Below the pieces are notes generated by a model. The model made no database searches and had not been told where the DNA came from. It saw nothing but the letters and a program-made list of their open reading frames with translations. A stretch of 64,000 bases of DNA from positions 239,463 to 303,462 of the forward strand of contig CAYGDX010000001.1 of assembly GCA_964348825.1 (NCBI GenBank), written 5' to 3'. The translations under genes and the position numbers were made by a program. Shown in pieces: positions 29,967-60,726 of this stretch; position 1 is the first letter of the stretch, and each line of letters starts with the position of its first letter. The DNA comes from an uncultured Gammaproteobacteria bacterium (lineage in GTDB: Bacteria > Patescibacteriota > Patescibacteriia > Veblenbacterales > UBA10138).

Positions 29967-30509
29967 ATGATTAAAAAGAATGAATCAGTAACTCACTTCG
30001 TGTTAAAGTCGTTGGCTGTGGTTGGCAGTATCACAGTAGATTTTTATACTTGGACGAATGATTTACGACGTTGGCAGTACCATTATGAAAGTAATCGTGA
30101 GTGGAAAAATTATTTAAAATATATTAAGGATAAAAATAGATCACGTAAATTATTACATAATTTAAAAAGAAGAAATTATATTAAGATTAATAAAATAGGT
30201 AACAGGGTTATAATTAGTTTAACTGATAAAGGTAAAATGGCAGCACTTAAAAATAGTTTATTACAAACTAAAAAGATGTCAGATAAATATACTGTAGTAA
30301 TTTTTGATATTCCCGAAACAGCACGCTTAGCCAGAGTATTATTTAGAAAATTATTAAAAGAAGCTAGCTTTAAAAAATTACAACAAAGCGTGTGGATATC
30401 AAATTGTGATGCCCATGATATCATGATTAAATTTATTAAAGAGCAAAAAATAGATAAATGGGTTAACGTATTTTATGCTACCGATTTGTTCAAGAAGTTG
30501 AATTTGTAA
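29967..30509 (+). CDS. PaaX-family-like small regulator (N-terminal wHTH-like region plus a C-terminal Cas2-fold/PaaX_C-like segment)
   Basis: The C-terminal YTVVIFDIPETARLARVLFRKLLKEASFKKLQQSVWIS fits the Cas2/PaaX_C pattern (YDIPE...R..L.K.L...GF..LQ.SVW). Length 180 aa, Lys-rich. Confidence 0.5.
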   Translation: MIKKNESVTHFVLKSLAVVGSITVDFYTWTNDLRRWQYHYESNREWKNYLKYIKDKNRSRKLLHNLKRRNYIKINKIGNRVIISLTDKGKMAALKNSLLQTKKMSDKYTVVIFDIPETARLARVLFRKLLKEASFKKLQQSVWISNCDAHDIMIKFIKEQKIDKWVNVFYATDLFKKLNL

Positions 30510-31875: not shown

Positions 31876-34002
31876 TTAACGTGTAAATTCGGGTAAGTAT
31901 AATTGATAAATATTTAGACCGTCTAAAAGATAAAGATTTTTTTCAGTGTCGATACTTATGTCGTAAATTATTGGTAAATATGGAAAAGTTATTTGAGCCA
32001 CTAATCGTGCATTTTTGTCTAGTATCACCAAACGTTTAGTTTTTTGATTAATTAAATAAAGATAATCTGATTCAGAGAATGTTTTAATAAAGTCAATTTT
32101 GGATAGCGGTGGGTTAATAGTTGGTAAATTAAAATTTTTTTTATTACCCAAAACGTATTTTTGTATGGCACTACTAGTTGCGGTATAAATTGTGCCGTCG
32201 ATTGTTAGGCTCGTAGCTTCGTTTAAAGTAGGATCATTATTTTTTAACCAGCGGGTGGGGGTAGTTACCCCAGTTATTTTATCAGTGCTAACACGGAAAA
32301 TAAAGCGTGGATTTTCGGCTAAGAAATAAAATTTATTATCGAAGGATCCGCCGCCTACAATCTTAGGTAAATTTTTTAACACTTGATAGGTTTGAGTGAG
32401 TGGGTCAAACAAATAGTTAGTGGAATCAGTTTTAATAATAATTTTATCGTTTAAGTTGTAAATAGATTTAAGTGGCTCGTGAAGTTCTAATTTTTTTTGT
32501 TTAATAACTGCTCGATTTAAATTTAATTCAGCAGTTTCTCCAGCACGACTGAATATTAAATTATTATTTTTGTTGAATACAAAATTTGTCCATATGTCAC
32601 CATTATTAAGTTGGGGCAGGGTAAGCCATGTGATGGGTTGATTAATTTCAAATAAACGATCAATTCTTTGGGCGAGAATTTTAAAACTATTTTGCCAAGC
32701 TTTGATTGATTCAATTTTATAGTGCGTGGCAGAAATTTCGGCTAGTAAATTATTACTTTGATTGAGTAGATCGCGCGCTTTTTGATCATTGTGATAAATT
32801 AAAGCAGCCTCGATTTCCGTTTGTGTAGAAGTTAATTTAGTTATAATATTATTTAATTTTTCATTTTCTTTGATTGTAGTTTGACGTTTGCCGATGCTAA
32901 CTATACTTTGCGAAAAAACTATTATTAAAATGGCTGCTAAAATTAGCAACACCTTTTTACCAGTGGGAAGTTTTTGAAAGTGACCCAATTTATTTTCTAA
33001 ATAAAAACTAGCAAAAGTTTTAGCCGATTCAGGGCTTTTAAGCCAAGCTAATTGATTTTTTTTATTACGCCAAAAGCGGCCAGTTTTTGTCCAAATTGTA
33101 ACCGGAGTTTTAATTTTAATGCTGGTTTTTTCTGGCGCAGAAGTGGCTGGGGGTGGAGTTTTGGTTAATACACCTTCTACTTTTGTGAAATTTTTAGTTG
33201 GCGTTATAACGTCGGTTTTGCCTTGTTTAGAGTTTGATTGGTTAAAAATATTTTGAAATTTTGGCCAAAATTTCGGCTTGAGTAAAAGTGAAGTTTTGTT
33301 TTGGGTTGATAACAATTTTTCGACTGAAGCGGCGGTGCCAATAATATTTTGCTCAGCGGTAGATTGTACTGCAATTATGCCAAGTGGCGGATGGTGTATA
33401 ATTTGTGAGGTAGTGCGTTCAATTTCACGAAGTGATAATCCTGGTACTTGATTATTAAAGATTTTCTTTAGTTTGTCGGGAGGATAAAAATCAAATAAAT
33501 TACTACTCAGGAGTAGAAAATTATCACCTTCTTCAAGTTGTCCTGAGCTTAATTCTTGGAAAGATATTTTAGTTGTAGTTTTGGGGCGAGTTTGATTTAA
33601 AAAATTTATATTACTGCCGCTTACTACCAAAGCACTGAGTCGGCCAACAATAGAAAGAACTAGGGAATGATTTTTAACTAGCGCTAAACCTAGTGAACAA
33701 CGTGGTGCCAGTGGATTACCGAGTAGTAGGCCAGCTTGCTCGAGAACTTCATTCATTTCTAAAAGAATAGATTCAAGTTTGGTTTCTAATGTTTGATTTG
33801 GTTTTATTTCATTTCGACTCGCCTCTATTATTTTATTAATATCAGCTAAAAATTTTACTCTGGTTTGTGGACTAAGATTAAGTTCAGCTAAAAATAATAA
33901 TGTATCTCCAGCTCCAGGTATCACTTGAGTAATCACTTGAGTATCACGAGTGGGTAGAGCGAGGGAAGCGATTTTGGTTGATTTTGGTGTAGTGTCTGAC
34001 AT
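31876..34002 (-). CDS. Hypothetical single-pass membrane protein. It has an N-terminal cytoplasmic domain (about 210 aa), a Pro/Thr-rich linker, a TM helix near aa 355-375, and a C-terminal extracellular domain (about 330 aa, possibly beta-propeller-like).
   Basis: 708-aa ORF. The TM segment is VLLILAAILIIVFSQSIVSI. No confident family assignment could be made. Confidence 0.5.
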   Translation of the reverse strand: MSDTTPKSTKIASLALPTRDTQVITQVIPGAGDTLLFLAELNLSPQTRVKFLADINKIIEASRNEIKPNQTLETKLESILLEMNEVLEQAGLLLGNPLAPRCSLGLALVKNHSLVLSIVGRLSALVVSGSNINFLNQTRPKTTTKISFQELSSGQLEEGDNFLLLSSNLFDFYPPDKLKKIFNNQVPGLSLREIERTTSQIIHHPPLGIIAVQSTAEQNIIGTAASVEKLLSTQNKTSLLLKPKFWPKFQNIFNQSNSKQGKTDVITPTKNFTKVEGVLTKTPPPATSAPEKTSIKIKTPVTIWTKTGRFWRNKKNQLAWLKSPESAKTFASFYLENKLGHFQKLPTGKKVLLILAAILIIVFSQSIVSIGKRQTTIKENEKLNNIITKLTSTQTEIEAALIYHNDQKARDLLNQSNNLLAEISATHYKIESIKAWQNSFKILAQRIDRLFEINQPITWLTLPQLNNGDIWTNFVFNKNNNLIFSRAGETAELNLNRAVIKQKKLELHEPLKSIYNLNDKIIIKTDSTNYLFDPLTQTYQVLKNLPKIVGGGSFDNKFYFLAENPRFIFRVSTDKITGVTTPTRWLKNNDPTLNEATSLTIDGTIYTATSSAIQKYVLGNKKNFNLPTINPPLSKIDFIKTFSESDYLYLINQKTKRLVILDKNARLVAQITFPYLPIIYDISIDTEKNLYLLDGLNIYQLYLPEFTR

Positions 34003-43857: not shown

Positions 43858-43932
43858 GCCGCCTTCGTCTAGTGGCTAGGACACGTGGTTCTCATCCACG
43901 CAACAGGAGTTCGATTCTCCTAGGCGGTACCA
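43858..43932 (+). tRNA. tRNA-Glu (anticodon CUC) with encoded CCA
   Basis: Manual cloverleaf: acceptor GCCGCCT/AGGCGGT, D stem GTCT/GGAC, anticodon stem CGTGG/CCACG with loop TTCTCAT, T arm AGGAG-TTCGATT-CTCCT, discriminator A, CCA. Confidence 0.8.
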
Positions 43933-43975
43933 CAAATGGGTAATTCAAATGTGGATTGCCCATTTGTGGTATTAT
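43931..43975 (+). terminator. Hairpin (10-bp stem CACAAATGGG/CCCATTTGTG) overlapping the tRNA-Glu 3' end. Either a terminator or an attachment-site-like structure.
   Basis: Read directly. Followed by AT-rich sequence. Confidence 0.4.
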
Positions 43976-44048
43976 AAATAGAGAATCGAAGGGCACAATA
44001 AAAATGTAAACTGCTTTCATTTTTATTAACACCAGTTCGTATTATTAA

Positions 44049-44645
44049 ATGGATTATATGTCTTTGGAGTCAAAAATAAGATTAATTACTAATAGTGACG
44101 ACCATAAATTTTATACCTACTATTTTAAGAATAATAGTGCTAAATGGAACCAATTTTGTGCTGCTTTGGATGTAATAGGAGATTCAGAGCTTGCTATTAA
44201 TGAATTTATTTTAAATGGTACGGGATCTGGAAGACTAGGAAAGAAATATCTTAATTTATACGGAATTTTTCAGGCTACGTATATTCAACAAGATGCTATT
44301 GAGACTTTGTATAAAATAGTGAAGCATTCATTCAAAAATAATAAACTGAAAGTTTTTGAAAAGTATAAAGGAAAAAATTGGGATGAATTAAGGAATTATA
44401 GAAATCTGACCGTGGGACATCCTACAAAATGTGAGACTTTTGAAAAAGGAAAAACAAAAAATACTTTTATTGTTCGATCAACTTTGGGTTCCGGAGGTAG
44501 TTTTCAAATTTTAATTTGCGATGATAAGCAAAAAGTTTTTAAATATGTGGATATAAAAAATTTAATTGCTTGCTATCTTTTGGATGTTGAGTATATTATT
44601 GCTGATATTGAGATATCTCTCAATTTTATCAAAGAAAGTTTATAA
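44049..44645 (+). CDS. Hypothetical HEPN-like protein (candidate MAE_28990-type HEPN nuclease)
   Basis: 198 aa. Carries an Rx4-6H-type motif, ELRNYRNLTVGHP. AT-rich relative to neighbouring genes. Confidence 0.4.
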   Translation: MDYMSLESKIRLITNSDDHKFYTYYFKNNSAKWNQFCAALDVIGDSELAINEFILNGTGSGRLGKKYLNLYGIFQATYIQQDAIETLYKIVKHSFKNNKLKVFEKYKGKNWDELRNYRNLTVGHPTKCETFEKGKTKNTFIVRSTLGSGGSFQILICDDKQKVFKYVDIKNLIACYLLDVEYIIADIEISLNFIKESL

Positions 44646-44650
44646 GTTAT

Positions 44651-46609
44651 ATGAAAAAAATATTTTTAGTTATAATTTTTGGCATTTTAACATTTTCGGG
44701 ATTTATATTTTTACCGAAATTTGTTTATGCTGCAGATTCAACCCCGATCATAAGTTCTATAACACCTGTGACGCTTCATTATTATGATGAGGCAGAAATC
44801 ATAGGAACTGGATTCGGTAATGATAGAACAAGAGGTGGTGTTGATTGGGCGGGTACAGGTGCTGGAAGTTACAGTTTGGCGGTTGACTCATGGACTGACA
44901 CAAAAATTAGTATAAGGATTAATCAGGAATTTCCAGGTAATCCGTATGGATCACATGGCATTATAGTTCGCACAGATAATGCTAATGGTGGGAATAATTA
45001 CAGCAATTCGTTTATCGTTAATGTAGAGAAGTCTTTGTGTGATCCGAAAAACTGGTCTTGTGGCACTTGGAGTGCTTGCACTGCCGCTGGTCAACAAACA
45101 CGCTCCTGTAATAAGGCACTTATTTGTGAAGGATCTATTACATCACCGCTGACGATTCAAAATTGCACCTATACACCACCCGCATGTACTTTTAGTGATT
45201 GGCAATGTGATGCTTGGAATGAGTGTTCTGTTAATGGTTTGCAAACTAGAAAATGTGATTTAAAGTATGGTGATAAAAATTCATCATCACCTGTATGTCA
45301 AGGTGGTGTAGCATCACCACCAACCACTCAATCATGTACATATATTCCCCCTGCTCCAACTTGCAATGCCGATACATGGACTTGTGGTGGTTGGAACGCT
45401 TGTTCGATTTATGGTTTGCAAACTAGAAATTGTAGTAAGGTTTTTGATTGTTCAACAGTTAACACGCAGTCCCCACTAACATCACAAAGTTGTACACCAC
45501 CATCTGTTTATCAACTACCACCACCAAGTTGTAATTCAGATACATGGACTTGTGGCGATTGGAATACTTGCTCACTTTCAGGAATACAAAATAGAAGTTG
45601 TAGAAAAACTTTTGATTGCTCAAGCGTAGAAACAGCGCCACCAACAACTGATCAGTATTGTGAGGTGCCTAATAGACCAACACAACAAGTACCTCAAAAT
45701 AGTGTTGATGAAATTTCAAATCAAGATATAATAATTAAATCTACTGTTAAACTTTTATGTCCTGTTGATACACAAAGAGCTAGCCAAGGATCAGGTACTG
45801 TTATTGATTCTAATGGAACTATTTTGACCAACAAGCATGTTATTGCCGGGACGTTGGGTTGTTTAGTTGGATTTATTAATGACTTTAATGATGAGCCATA
45901 TTTTGGAGAAAGACATATAGCAGATATTGTAAAAATATCGCCTAACCAAGATATCGCTATTTTAAAGATTAGAAATCCCCAAAATCGAAAACTCACTTAT
46001 GTTGATATAAATAGGGGTTATGGAAATTTGCGATTAGGAACCCAAATTATGACTTATGGTTATCCAGCAAGATTTGGTGATAATTTAACCTACACTAGTG
46101 GTGATTTTAGTGGTAAAGAGGGTGTTTATTTAAAAACAACGGCCATACTTGAATATGGAAATTCTGGTGGTGGCGCTTATCTTAAAGATGGAACATATAT
46201 AGGCATACCTTCCGCTGTAAAAGATGGAAAATTAAATTCACTAGGTTTAATACTTTCCTTGAATACAATTAAGGCGTGGATGGGTAATTATAGTGTTGCC
46301 ACCGGACCAACGAATAATAATTATTCAAGGGTTGCTGCTTTGGAAGATATAGATTTAAAAAAGCTTGGCTCATTAAAATTATTTATTCCTAATGCAAACA
46401 CTAAGAGTGTAGTTATTCCGCCTACAACAAATAAAAATACACAAAAAATTAAAGAACAACCAAAAATTAAACCAACGCAAAAAGAATCAACTATTATAGA
46501 ACCTATTAATACAGATCAAAAAATAAATCCCGAACTAAATAATTCAAAACCATTAGAGCCAGTAAAAAAAGTAAAATGGTATAAAAAGGTGTTTAATTGG
46601 TTTAAATAA
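44651..46609 (+). CDS. Secreted multidomain trypsin-like serine protease. It has a signal peptide, an N-terminal beta domain, four or five Cys/Trp-rich TSP1-like repeats, an S1 protease domain and a Lys-rich C-terminal tail.
   Basis: Signal peptide MKKIFLVIIFGILTFSGFIFLPKFVYA. Repeat pattern C..xW.C.xW..C...G.QTR.C. Catalytic triad context: His in TNKHVIAG, Asp in DIAILKI, Ser in GNSGGGAY. Confidence 0.75.
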   Translation: MKKIFLVIIFGILTFSGFIFLPKFVYAADSTPIISSITPVTLHYYDEAEIIGTGFGNDRTRGGVDWAGTGAGSYSLAVDSWTDTKISIRINQEFPGNPYGSHGIIVRTDNANGGNNYSNSFIVNVEKSLCDPKNWSCGTWSACTAAGQQTRSCNKALICEGSITSPLTIQNCTYTPPACTFSDWQCDAWNECSVNGLQTRKCDLKYGDKNSSSPVCQGGVASPPTTQSCTYIPPAPTCNADTWTCGGWNACSIYGLQTRNCSKVFDCSTVNTQSPLTSQSCTPPSVYQLPPPSCNSDTWTCGDWNTCSLSGIQNRSCRKTFDCSSVETAPPTTDQYCEVPNRPTQQVPQNSVDEISNQDIIIKSTVKLLCPVDTQRASQGSGTVIDSNGTILTNKHVIAGTLGCLVGFINDFNDEPYFGERHIADIVKISPNQDIAILKIRNPQNRKLTYVDINRGYGNLRLGTQIMTYGYPARFGDNLTYTSGDFSGKEGVYLKTTAILEYGNSGGGAYLKDGTYIGIPSAVKDGKLNSLGLILSLNTIKAWMGNYSVATGPTNNNYSRVAALEDIDLKKLGSLKLFIPNANTKSVVIPPTTNKNTQKIKEQPKIKPTQKESTIIEPINTDQKINPELNNSKPLEPVKKVKWYKKVFNWFK

Positions 46610-57021: not shown

Positions 57022-57105
57022 AATCTAGTAGTTAAAAATGTGACTCAAATCCAATTTTATATTACTTAATGTTCTAATGATTTAGTGTTTAAGTGATAAT
57101 TTTAT

Positions 57106-57179
57106 TGGGGGATCGTCTAACGGTAGGACATCGCCCTTTGAAGGCGAGTATCATGGTTCGAATCCATGTCCCCCAGCCA
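57106..57179 (+). tRNA. tRNA-Gln (anticodon UUG)
   Basis: Acceptor TGGGGGA/TCCCCCA (U1:A72), D arm GTCT-AACGGTA-GGAC, anticodon stem TCGCC/GGCGA with loop CTTTGAA, T arm CATGG-TTCGAAT-CCATG, CCA encoded. Confidence 0.8.
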
Positions 57180-57210: not shown

Positions 57211-58008
57211 ATGGAAATAAGATTTGATAAATTTGAAGAACAAGTTTTTCTAAATACTGTATTAATTGAAAATTTGACTGATGGTGAATTTGGCACGGGT
57301 TTTTTAGTTCTTAAACCGTCTGTAGAAGGAAAGCAAAAAATTCTATTATTTTCTAATAAACATGTTTTTTGGGGTAAAAAAGATAAAGATAATCCTGAAG
57401 CCAAAAAGTCACTTAGAATTACTTTACATAAAAGAAATGAAGATGATACGTACACACTAGGTAATATTCAAACTTTTCCTGGTGAGCTTGGGCGCAAAAT
57501 GCCTGGTTATTACGAACACCCAAATACAGCAGTAGATATTGCTTGTATTAATATTTCTGATCTTGCAAATAAGGGAGTCAAACTTAATATAAATGGTTTA
57601 GATATAGAACAATTTACTGCTTTTAAAAGAGAAAAGCTGTATGCTGGTATGAATGTAGTTTTTGTAGGATATCCTTCTGGTTTTTATGATAAGAAAAATT
57701 TTTTGCCAGTAATGCGTTCTGGAACAATAGCAAGTATTCCTATGGTAGATTTTAATGGAGAACCAAAAGTTTTACTAGACGCACAAATTTTTCCAGGATC
57801 AAGCGGAAGTCCGGTCTTTGCTTCAATAGAAGGTAAATATAATCTTTTGGGAATAGTCAGTGATGGTATTCATAAAAATCTTGATTTTGTTGAGATAGAA
57901 AAAGCGACTGAGCCTATTAAAGAGAAAGTTAATATTCCTCGTGAATGGATAGGGTTAGGTATGTTGTTTACAAGTGAGATGATTAAAGAAGTATACGACA
58001 TGGCATAA
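57211..58008 (+). CDS. Trypsin-like (S1/Trypsin_2-type) serine protease with no signal peptide
   Basis: His in LLFSNKHVFWG, Asp in AVDIACINI, Ser in FPGSSGSPVFA. Length 265 aa. Confidence 0.7.
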   Translation: MEIRFDKFEEQVFLNTVLIENLTDGEFGTGFLVLKPSVEGKQKILLFSNKHVFWGKKDKDNPEAKKSLRITLHKRNEDDTYTLGNIQTFPGELGRKMPGYYEHPNTAVDIACINISDLANKGVKLNINGLDIEQFTAFKREKLYAGMNVVFVGYPSGFYDKKNFLPVMRSGTIASIPMVDFNGEPKVLLDAQIFPGSSGSPVFASIEGKYNLLGIVSDGIHKNLDFVEIEKATEPIKEKVNIPREWIGLGMLFTSEMIKEVYDMA

Positions 58009-58048: not shown

Positions 58049-58519
58049 ATGAAAACAAAAGATACTAAAGAATTTTTTGAAACACTTGGAGAAATTTGGC
58101 GCGATATAACCTTAATTGAGTTTTTAATGCGTGGCGCTTTAACCCAAAAAGAAGGTGATGTAAATAAATGGCCCAAACCTCCGTATAATAAAGGGAAAAT
58201 TTATAATGAGTACCCAAAATCATTTTCATATACTTATTTTAGTGACGTTGCCCAAGAGTTCAATAAAAAATTTCCAAAACTTACCATTCCTCAGGAATTA
58301 ATTGATCTAAGAAATGCTATGGCACATGGATTCATTTCAGAAATTAACTACAGTGGAATAGATGAAGTTGTTAAATTTAGAAAACAAAAAGATGGTACAC
58401 TTTTAGTAGAGTTTTCTATGACACTTGAACAAAAAAGAATAAGACAAATTCGACAATCTCTCAAAGAATTGCGACAACATATAATGTTAGTAGCAGCAGA
58501 TAAGCTCAAAGTTAAATAA
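58049..58519 (+). CDS. HEPN-domain protein (Abi_2/AbiD-like Rx4H motif)
   Basis: ELIDLRNAMAHGF has R-x4-H in an RNxxAH context. Predicted all-alpha. Length 156 aa. Confidence 0.5.
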   Translation: MKTKDTKEFFETLGEIWRDITLIEFLMRGALTQKEGDVNKWPKPPYNKGKIYNEYPKSFSYTYFSDVAQEFNKKFPKLTIPQELIDLRNAMAHGFISEINYSGIDEVVKFRKQKDGTLLVEFSMTLEQKRIRQIRQSLKELRQHIMLVAADKLKVK

Positions 58520-60244: not shown

Positions 60245-60297
60245 AGTGATAATTTTATATAATATATCCGAATATGATGAGTTTTGCCAATGTATGC

Positions 60298-60726
60298 TTA
60301 TTCTTCTATTGCCTCAATACCTTGTTCTTTAAGTTTGGCTAAATTATCTTTCATTTCTTTGACTTGTTCTGGTGAGTGTCCTTGCCAAATAGTAATTTCG
60401 CCAACAACCTTAAATGGATATTTTGAACGATATGACTTTGTTGGATTACCGGGAAATTTTTTGTCGGTTAAATTGGGGTCATTTTCAATTGGGCCTGTTG
60501 GTTCTACTAAATATATTCTTTCACGCCCTTCACCCAAAGCTAGTTCAGCTCCCCAAATCGCGGCATCTAAAGTGGCAGTGAGATAGATATATTTTGCTTT
60601 TTTATTTTGTCCATAGTTCGAGTTAAGACCAACTTCAATAAAGTGGCCGATCTTTAAGTTAACCTTTGTGCCGTGGAAGTATGTTTGAGCAAATGGACTT
60701 TGAGCAGGTTCATTTGATTTATTCAT
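60298..60726 (-). CDS. arr: Rifampin ADP-ribosyltransferase (Arr)-family protein
   Basis: YFHGTKVNLKIG, YIYLTATLDAAIWGAELA, LVEPTGPIENDPNLTDKKFPGNPTKSYRS and IWQGHS segments match the Arr pattern. Length 142 aa. Confidence 0.7.
   Translation of the reverse strand: MNKSNEPAQSPFAQTYFHGTKVNLKIGHFIEVGLNSNYGQNKKAKYIYLTATLDAAIWGAELALGEGRERIYLVEPTGPIENDPNLTDKKFPGNPTKSYRSKYPFKVVGEITIWQGHSPEQVKEMKDNLAKLKEQGIEAIEE

Follow-up and report, generated by a model that had tools for sequence, protein, structure and literature searches.

Does the repeated occurrence of a small HEPN-like gene beside a gene for a trypsin-like serine protease mark a defence system, or are the genes unrelated neighbours? The question is raised by a stretch of 64,000 nucleotides (nt) on contig CAYGDX010000001.1 (hereafter the window), from an uncultured bacterium that GTDB places in the Patescibacteriota. 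Here open reading frame (ORF) A lies next to ORF-B immediately 3′ of tRNA-Glu, and ORF-C lies next to ORF-D after tRNA-Gln (Table 1). An initial annotation had read the two pairs as copies of one mobile module that joins a HEPN protein to a serine protease. We find that the pairs are not homologous and that, whichever of the four genes is taken as the starting point, the pairing is absent or non-syntenic in relatives, the outcome that the annotation itself had named as decisive against its proposal. It is likely that ORF-A and ORF-B are functionally unrelated neighbours, and that the HEPN-like gene ORF-A was acquired horizontally and stands alone in a variable slot.

Both adjacencies exist much as first described. 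Downstream of tRNA-Glu(CUC) there is indeed a 198-amino-acid (aa) protein with an Rx4-6H motif (R118/H124); beside it stands a 652-aa trypsin-like protease with a Sec-type N terminus (Trypsin_2, expect value (E) 1e-15); and a second pair follows tRNA-Gln in the opposite order. The genes of the first pair nearly abut, although the gap from the ORF-A stop to the ORF-B start is 5 nt rather than the four originally given; that between ORF-C and ORF-D is 40 nt. What does not hold is that these are two copies of one unit. ORF-A and ORF-D compare at a BLASTP E of 2.2 and an hhalign probability of 0.2%, the latter obtained with alignment A2 after a comparison of the two families with the wide alignment A1 had been uninformative. 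ORF-B and ORF-C (E 0.29) have only the generic Trypsin_2 domain in common.

The family of ORF-A argues against a conserved pairing. Scanning contigs with an 11-sequence alignment, we fetched 80 loci, 77 of them analysable, from Chloroflexota, Acidobacteriota, Nitrospirota, Bacteroidota, Pseudomonadota, Patescibacteria, Planctomycetota, Bacillota, Cyanobacteria and Methanothrix. In none of the 77 did BLASTP detect a neighbour resembling ORF-B or ORF-C, and no neighbour cluster recurred across them. Among 129 genes flanking ORF-A relatives, no Pfam family was found in more than two, and Trypsin is absent from the families listed. Most of the surrounding genes are ordinary metabolic genes or have no assigned function. 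A minority of relatives stand beside defence genes (type IIG restriction–modification (R-M), HmaC, AbiLi and DUF499), with a type IIG enzyme 29 nt upstream at one locus (L097) and GmrSD downstream at another (L099). Plasmid-borne relatives lie near SIR2 and insertion sequence (IS) elements on Marinobacter pMAQU01 and near IS elements on an Acinetobacter plasmid.

Seen from the protease, the picture is the same. Behind its signal peptide, ORF-B carries four Cys-rich repeats of the pattern C-x(2-4)-W-x-C-x2-W-x2-C-x3-G-x-Q-x-R-x-C, starting at aa 130, 179, 238 and 294 and visible in the DNA as direct repeat family D1 (45206-45601). No Pfam model matches these repeats, which by eye look like thrombospondin type 1 repeats. 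The protease domain has the triad motifs NKH396, D434 and GNS505 and is followed by a Lys/Pro-rich tail; similarity to PDC-S45, the family of ORF-C, is confined to 50 residues (E 0.004). ORF-B is best read as a protease that acts outside the cell or at its surface, with repeats of an adhesion type, and that typifies this lineage of Patescibacteria. Homologues with 46–75% identity were found at 15 metagenomic loci, and no ORF-A-like gene was present where upstream sequence was readable (best match of the A2 hidden Markov model (HMM) E 0.047, 5.7 bits). The upstream position is empty or holds a 140-aa membrane protein or a protein of 89, 134 or 219 aa; at four loci a conserved 65-aa XRE-type helix-turn-helix regulator and then a variable small gene precede the ORF-B homologue (Table 1). 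The window has no homologue of this regulator. Transfer RNA genes of various identities lie near some of the loci, tRNA-Glu near none. The gene upstream thus differs among ORF-B homologues, and we therefore regard ORF-A as the occupant of a variable slot here.

At the second locus, a check against PADLOC, as the initial annotation had suggested, returned nothing for ORF-A but assigned ORF-C to PDC-S45 at close to full length (E 9.9e-42; residues 7–263 on profile positions 15–281 of 293). ORF-C also matches phrog_7688 (E 1.6e-39) and Trypsin_2 (E 5.9e-11), has the triad motifs H51, D109 and S198, and lacks a signal peptide. Like other members of PDC-S45 it is found on mobile or accessory DNA. 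The family is a computational phage-defence candidate only, and the assignment covers ORF-C, not ORF-B. We take the 'S' in its name to stand for single-gene, by the naming convention. A literature search on PDC-S45, Vpar_1526 and HEPN plus trypsin-like defence pairs found no mechanistic information. On plasmids and on phage SfII, PDC-S45-like proteases are mostly solitary, with a HEPN-like neighbour in one of nine contexts; they lie beside recombinases, replication genes, a RelE/ParE pair or phage lysis genes, or have type I R-M on one side and McrBC on the other. Co-residence in defence islands fits these contexts better than an obligate pair. Scans of viral contigs for ORF-C and for the ORF-D family found no relatives.

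The same accessory stretch holds two further observations. An exact 14-nt direct repeat, AGTGATAATTTTAT, occurs at 57092-57105 and 60245-60258, 3.15 kb apart, and encloses tRNA-Gln, ORF-C, ORF-D, an alpha/beta hydrolase and a membrane protein; it could delimit an accessory segment, be a promoter element shared by both sites, or have arisen by chance. Nearby, at 60298-60726 (−), lies a 142-aa homologue of rifampin ADP-ribosyltransferase (Pfam Arr-ms, E 8e-48), an antibiotic-modifying enzyme unexpected for an apparent Patescibacteria genome.

That ORF-D is a HEPN protein is well supported. Among its 53 homologues, every source name given is Patescibacteria or Paceibacterota; R88 and H93 (LRNAMAHG) are invariant in the family, and the HEPN motif sits in a HEPN-type fold. 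In its structural model (predicted local distance difference test (pLDDT) 89) the motif helix is followed by three strands and a C-terminal helix, as in ORF-A. Matches to RiboL-PSP, MAE_28990 and the Cas13 C terminus in Pfam and PADLOC are below threshold, that to the MAE_28990/MAE_18760-type HEPN family (PF18737) reaching E 0.058 and 14 bits against a cut-off of 26.8. No plasmid relatives of ORF-D were found. In the ten distinct contexts sampled, the window included, the same-strand upstream gene differs in nearly every one (Table 1), and a protease lies within three genes of the ORF-D homologue in two. The upstream gene is co-oriented in all ten, with a gap of 8–72 nt in seven and more than 200 nt in three; ORF-D itself stays 51–85% identical while its partner changes completely. 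One of these contexts (L089 1384-8486) has the order hsdM, NYN nuclease, ORF-D homologue, hsdS, a PDC-S32-like 222-aa protein and hsdR, the ORF-D homologue overlapping hsdS by 4 nt. In another (L095 2863-3789), the gene immediately ahead of an ORF-D homologue with 83% identity encodes a 308-aa protein that combines an N-terminal HEPN-like region (weak similarity to ORF-D, E 0.054) with a weak C-terminal LNS2 (HAD-like) match.

ORF-A probably belongs to the HEPN superfamily too. The protein contains ELRNYRNLTVGHP; databases start it at M4, which gives 195 aa. It has no match in Pfam (none at E <= 1, which leaves its suggested MAE_28990 type without backing from profiles), NCBIfam, PADLOC or PHROGs, and a k-mer-seeded search retrieved only itself. 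Exhaustive HMMER searching, by contrast, gathered 1022 cluster representatives at E <= 1e-3. The family is thus large, unnamed, without a profile model and scattered over many phyla: named relatives in public sources are all 'hypothetical protein', 82 relatives have no precomputed Pfam domain, and one of 61 matches HEPN_AbiU2 (E 0.007). An alignment of 61 sequences shows no variation at D45, G72, Q75, R115, R118 and H124, and conservation of at least 90% at N119, G123, P125, Q80, Q81 and D82; D82, in a QQDA motif, is invariant in the 11 closest relatives. The AlphaFold model (pLDDT 94) has a four-helix core (30-56, 63-94, 109-123 and 169-197) with three beta strands (137-168) ahead of the last helix. 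A survey of HEPN proteins locates the Rx4-6H motif towards the C terminus of helix 3, and an acidic residue within helix 2 is conserved as well (PMC3710099). In the model of ORF-A, helix 3 (109-123) ends with the conserved RN-x3-GH motif (Rx5H), and D82 supplies, by sequence and helix position, the acidic residue within helix 2 (63-94). Seven of the nine top Foldseek matches in the PDB are HEPN toxins of HEPN-MNT systems, at E 0.4-1.9, none of them significant; no curated HEPN profile matches significantly, and sequence-profile searches of the PDB with the ORF-A and ORF-D families gave nothing meaningful. The view that both small proteins are HEPN-like thus stands firmly for ORF-D and as probable for ORF-A.

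Relatives of ORF-A fall into two length classes, of about 190 aa and about 310 aa. In the long forms (L013-L088), some 125 aa at the C terminus (roughly aa 190-315) make up a conserved, acidic, helical domain, which may be a sensor or regulatory domain; ORF-A is a short form and lacks this domain, which most relatives carry. The possibility that short forms are split long forms was rejected, in that an HMM of the C-terminal domain matches only fused long forms among the fetched loci.

Several known systems resemble parts of these loci. Stand-alone HEPN RNases of the abortive-infection type (AbiU2, AbiV, AbiJ and HEPN proteins embedded in R-M; Anantharaman et al. 2013, PMC3710099) are, like ORF-A and ORF-D, small helical proteins with Rx4-6H ending helix 3, and they are patchily distributed, often within or beside R-M operons and in defence islands, as are the ORF-D family and some ORF-A relatives. 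ORF-A differs from them in having no Pfam HEPN match, in its RN-x3-GH (Rx5H) spacing, in the three beta strands that separate helix 3 from helix 4, and in that most of its relatives have the extra C-terminal domain; ORF-D falls under the gathering threshold for RiboL-PSP and MAE_28990. The HEPN toxins of type II/VII HEPN-MNT systems (PDB 5yep, 7ae2, 8xdj and 8yuf) are the top structural matches of both ORF-A and ORF-D among characterised proteins, with the same position of the catalytic motif and a predicted four-helix fold that, for ORF-A, is probably the same, but identity is just 7–18%, the toxins have no beta insert, and no MNT nucleotidyltransferase antitoxin gene stands beside ORF-A or ORF-D. 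The protease domain of ORF-B aligns with HtrA/DegP, sharing a His-Asp-Ser triad and export; it differs in scoring 49 bits against a cut-off of 416, in having no detectable PDZ domain, and in an N-terminal half made up of the four Cys-rich repeats.

The setting of the genes is that of accessory DNA. The DNA 3′ of tRNA-Glu had been described as richer in AT, which is true of ORF-A, whose GC content of 27.8% is the second lowest among the 44 genes of the window (mean 37.4%, standard deviation 4.0), but not of ORF-B, which at 35.4% is ordinary. ORF-C (31.6%) and ORF-D (30.6%) are both low against the mean; ORF-A, ORF-C and ORF-D are low-GC accessory genes. In tRNA-linked genomic islands, low-GC accessory genes likewise lie immediately 3′ of tRNA genes. 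The present loci differ in comprising an insert of one or two genes without an integrase, a duplicated tRNA 3′ end or flanking direct repeats. Neither tRNA-Glu nor tRNA-Gln shows the signature of a classical island: no ORF there encodes an integrase, and a search for att-type repeats found neither a second copy of the tRNA 3′ end nor any direct repeat derived from the tRNA. The hairpin reported over the end of tRNA-Glu is real, but its stem is larger than the 10 bp first given, at 22 bp with a 4-nt loop, and takes in the final 7 nt of the tRNA. It folds with −32.4 kcal/mol (z = −7.3; 0/200 shuffles equally stable), its sequence occurs once in the window, and a clear U-tract was not found behind the stem. 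It probably serves in tRNA 3′ processing or as a terminator, and an insertion scar is a further candidate. Scans for promoter and terminator consensus sequences did no better than on shuffles.

Elsewhere in the window, the gene lowest in GC (27.4%) lies at 29967-30509 (+) and encodes a 180-aa protein with a winged-helix domain and a PaaX central/Cas2-like domain (PF20803, E 1.4e-13; CRISPR_Cas2, E 8e-4). A 708-aa ORF at 31876-34002 (−), with a GC content of 33.4%, has no Pfam match at E <= 0.01.

Table 1. Positions of the features at the two tRNA loci, the regulator slot ahead of ORF-B homologues, and the genes upstream of ORF-D and its homologues. Positions refer to the window unless a locus (L) or contig (P) handle is given.
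Feature	Position	Strand	Basis
tRNA-Glu (anticodon CTC)	43858-43932	+	ARAGORN
Hairpin, 22-bp stem and 4-nt loop	43926-43973 (43926-43947 / 43952-43973)	+	Inverted repeat I2, RNA fold
ORF-A, 198 aa, HEPN-like	44049-44645	+	Translation
ORF-A family signature R115-x2-R118-N119-x3-G123-H124-P125 (Rx5H HEPN-type motif)	44391-44423	+	Alignment of 61
ORF-B, 652 aa, secreted/surface trypsin-fold serine protease	44651-46609	+	Translation, Pfam
Sec-type signal peptide of ORF-B (MKK, hydrophobic core, VYA/AD)	44651-44731	+	Read by eye from translation
Four Cys-rich repeats of ORF-B (aa 130-337)	45038-45661	+	Regular expression
Trypsin_2 domain of ORF-B (aa 380-519)	45788-46207	+	Pfam PF13365, E 9.9e-16
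tRNA-Gln (TTG)	57106-57179	+	ARAGORN
ORF-C, 265 aa, cytoplasmic trypsin-fold protease, PADLOC PDC-S45	57211-58008	+	Profile matches
ORF-D, 156 aa, HEPN-domain protein (R88-x4-H93)	58049-58519	+	Alignment, model
XRE regulator and small-gene slot before ORF-B homologues	L102 4326-4962; L108 76-547; L111 2179-2376; L116 989-1595		
Upstream of ORF-D: PDC-S45 protease	Window		
Upstream of ORF-D homologue: Vpar_1526	L001		
Upstream of ORF-D homologue: 226-aa protein with weak HEPN match	L004		
Upstream of ORF-D homologue: 181-aa protein	L006		
Upstream of ORF-D homologue: NYN nuclease, within hsdM-...-hsdS-hsdR operon	L089		
Upstream of ORF-D homologue: ResIII helicase and methyltransferase	P0009 contig		
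Upstream of ORF-D homologue: EcoRI methylase, then 191-aa protein; GmrSD downstream	L091		
Upstream of ORF-D homologue: DnaJ-domain protein; PDC-S45 protease two genes further up; McrB-N/HNH nearby	L094		
Upstream of ORF-D homologue: 308-aa protein with RNNLVH; adjoins ftsEX as in the window	L095		
Upstream of ORF-D homologue: AbiU2-like HEPN; HsdS and RhuM nearby	L122		

How firmly do these data decide between a shared function and mere proximity? A mobile module of two genes, HEPN protein and serine protease, with a role in defence or as a toxin, which occurs here twice in opposite order and is integrated next to tRNA genes, would account for adjacent, same-strand, closely spaced pairs with HEPN-like small proteins, for the low GC of ORF-A, ORF-C and ORF-D, for the match of ORF-C to a candidate defence family and for the clustering of a PDC-S45 protease with an ORF-D homologue at L094. 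It is hard to reconcile with components that are not homologous between the pairs, with a secreted ORF-B that is ill-suited as the cytoplasmic partner of an RNase, with the lack of a protease neighbour at all 77 ORF-A loci and of an ORF-A-like gene at readable ORF-B loci, with eight of ten ORF-D contexts devoid of a nearby protease, with PDC-S45-like proteases that are mostly solitary, or with the missing integrase and att-like repeat. The absent synteny already largely refutes such a module, and we consider it highly improbable. Some observations nevertheless weigh against treating the genes as unrelated. Two HEPN-like/protease adjacencies beside tRNAs within 64 kb are a striking coincidence, the gaps of 5 nt and 40 nt suggest operons, and the closest ORF-D homologue examined (L094) does have the PDC-S45 protease two genes upstream. 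On Arthrobacter plasmid pHiyo8-1, moreover, the gene that comes after a PDC-S45-like protease encodes a 355-aa protein with an RNQIEH motif; this leaves room for a loose protease–HEPN affinity at the second locus. In addition, the neighbour genes in the 77 ORF-A loci were called as crude greedy ORFs, and no close relative of this genome was at hand to show an empty site without ORF-A. By a post-hoc estimate, genes placed at random would be unlikely to give two such adjacencies in one window; we attribute them to the accumulation of accessory genes in a few variable slots.

A narrower form of cooperation would spare the first locus and apply to the second alone: ORF-D would be the constant subunit of a two-gene cassette of Patescibacteria whose upstream effector or sensor is swappable, so that ORF-C and ORF-D cooperate and ORF-A and ORF-B do not. 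The co-oriented upstream gene in every context, 8-72 nt away in seven, the conservation of ORF-D beside changing partners, and the effector-like nature of several of these (NYN, weak HEPN, the RNNLVH-bearing protein) speak for it. Yet the partners have no domain in common, the gap exceeds 200 nt in three contexts, and the homologue that overlaps hsdS at L089 seems to ride along with the type I R-M genes of its operon. Shared residence in defence islands accounts for the pattern with no need of functional coupling, PDC-S45 is presumably a single-gene candidate, and the sample is ten contexts; we judge the cassette rather unlikely. More doubtful still is that ORF-A is a helical regulatory or scaffold protein rather than a nuclease, in a family outside conflict systems. 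This would fit the lack of a HEPN profile match, the failure of hhalign to relate ORF-A to the ORF-D family and the mostly metabolic or unassigned neighbours of its relatives, but not the invariant R, N and H at the position of the HEPN catalytic motif, the conserved acidic residue in helix 2, the HEPN toxins as best Foldseek matches, or the patchy spread over phyla and plasmids with low GC and recurrent R-M, GmrSD or IS neighbours.

We therefore return to ORF-A as a stand-alone HEPN-like gene beside an unrelated protease. By analogy with the HEPN superfamily, ORF-A would most likely work as a dimer and, without need of metal, as an RNase of the toxin or abortive-infection type, which may stay inactive until some trigger, phage infection for example, lets it cut cellular or phage RNA. 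Its relatives are single genes in ever-changing surroundings. The slot upstream of ORF-B-type genes is filled by different small genes from genome to genome, here by ORF-A, and the 5-nt spacing from ORF-B would probably reflect passive co-transcription. The second locus would be a separate accessory patch, with a PDC-S45 protease and an independent HEPN gene that has many upstream partners. The data show the coordinates, the domain content, the sizes of the families, the composition and the absence of a conserved pairing; the RNase activity, the defence role and the co-transcription are what we infer. Bolder, and in our estimate unlikely, is a combined view in which ORF-D is the constant HEPN subunit of a modular Patescibacteria cassette (partners PDC-S45, NYN, a second HEPN, a DnaJ-domain protein and Vpar_1526) and the ORF-A family is a HEPN system of abortive infection, hitherto unrecognised, that consists of a single gene in a short form and a long form, the latter with a C-terminal sensor domain.

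Taken together, an apparently recurrent pairing of HEPN and protease genes dissolves once it is set against relatives, and adjacency in a single genome, even twice, is no evidence of a system. What novelty remains lies in two families. That of ORF-A is large, spans many phyla, is also carried on plasmids and has a HEPN-type motif and predicted fold, yet it is outside all profile libraries; a Pfam or PADLOC model and a functional test are therefore worthwhile. The anti-phage repertoire of the ultra-small Patescibacteria is poorly charted, and the ORF-D family adds a HEPN gene, here seen in Patescibacteria alone, that is carried within R-M operons and defence islands and may form cassettes with swappable upstream partners.

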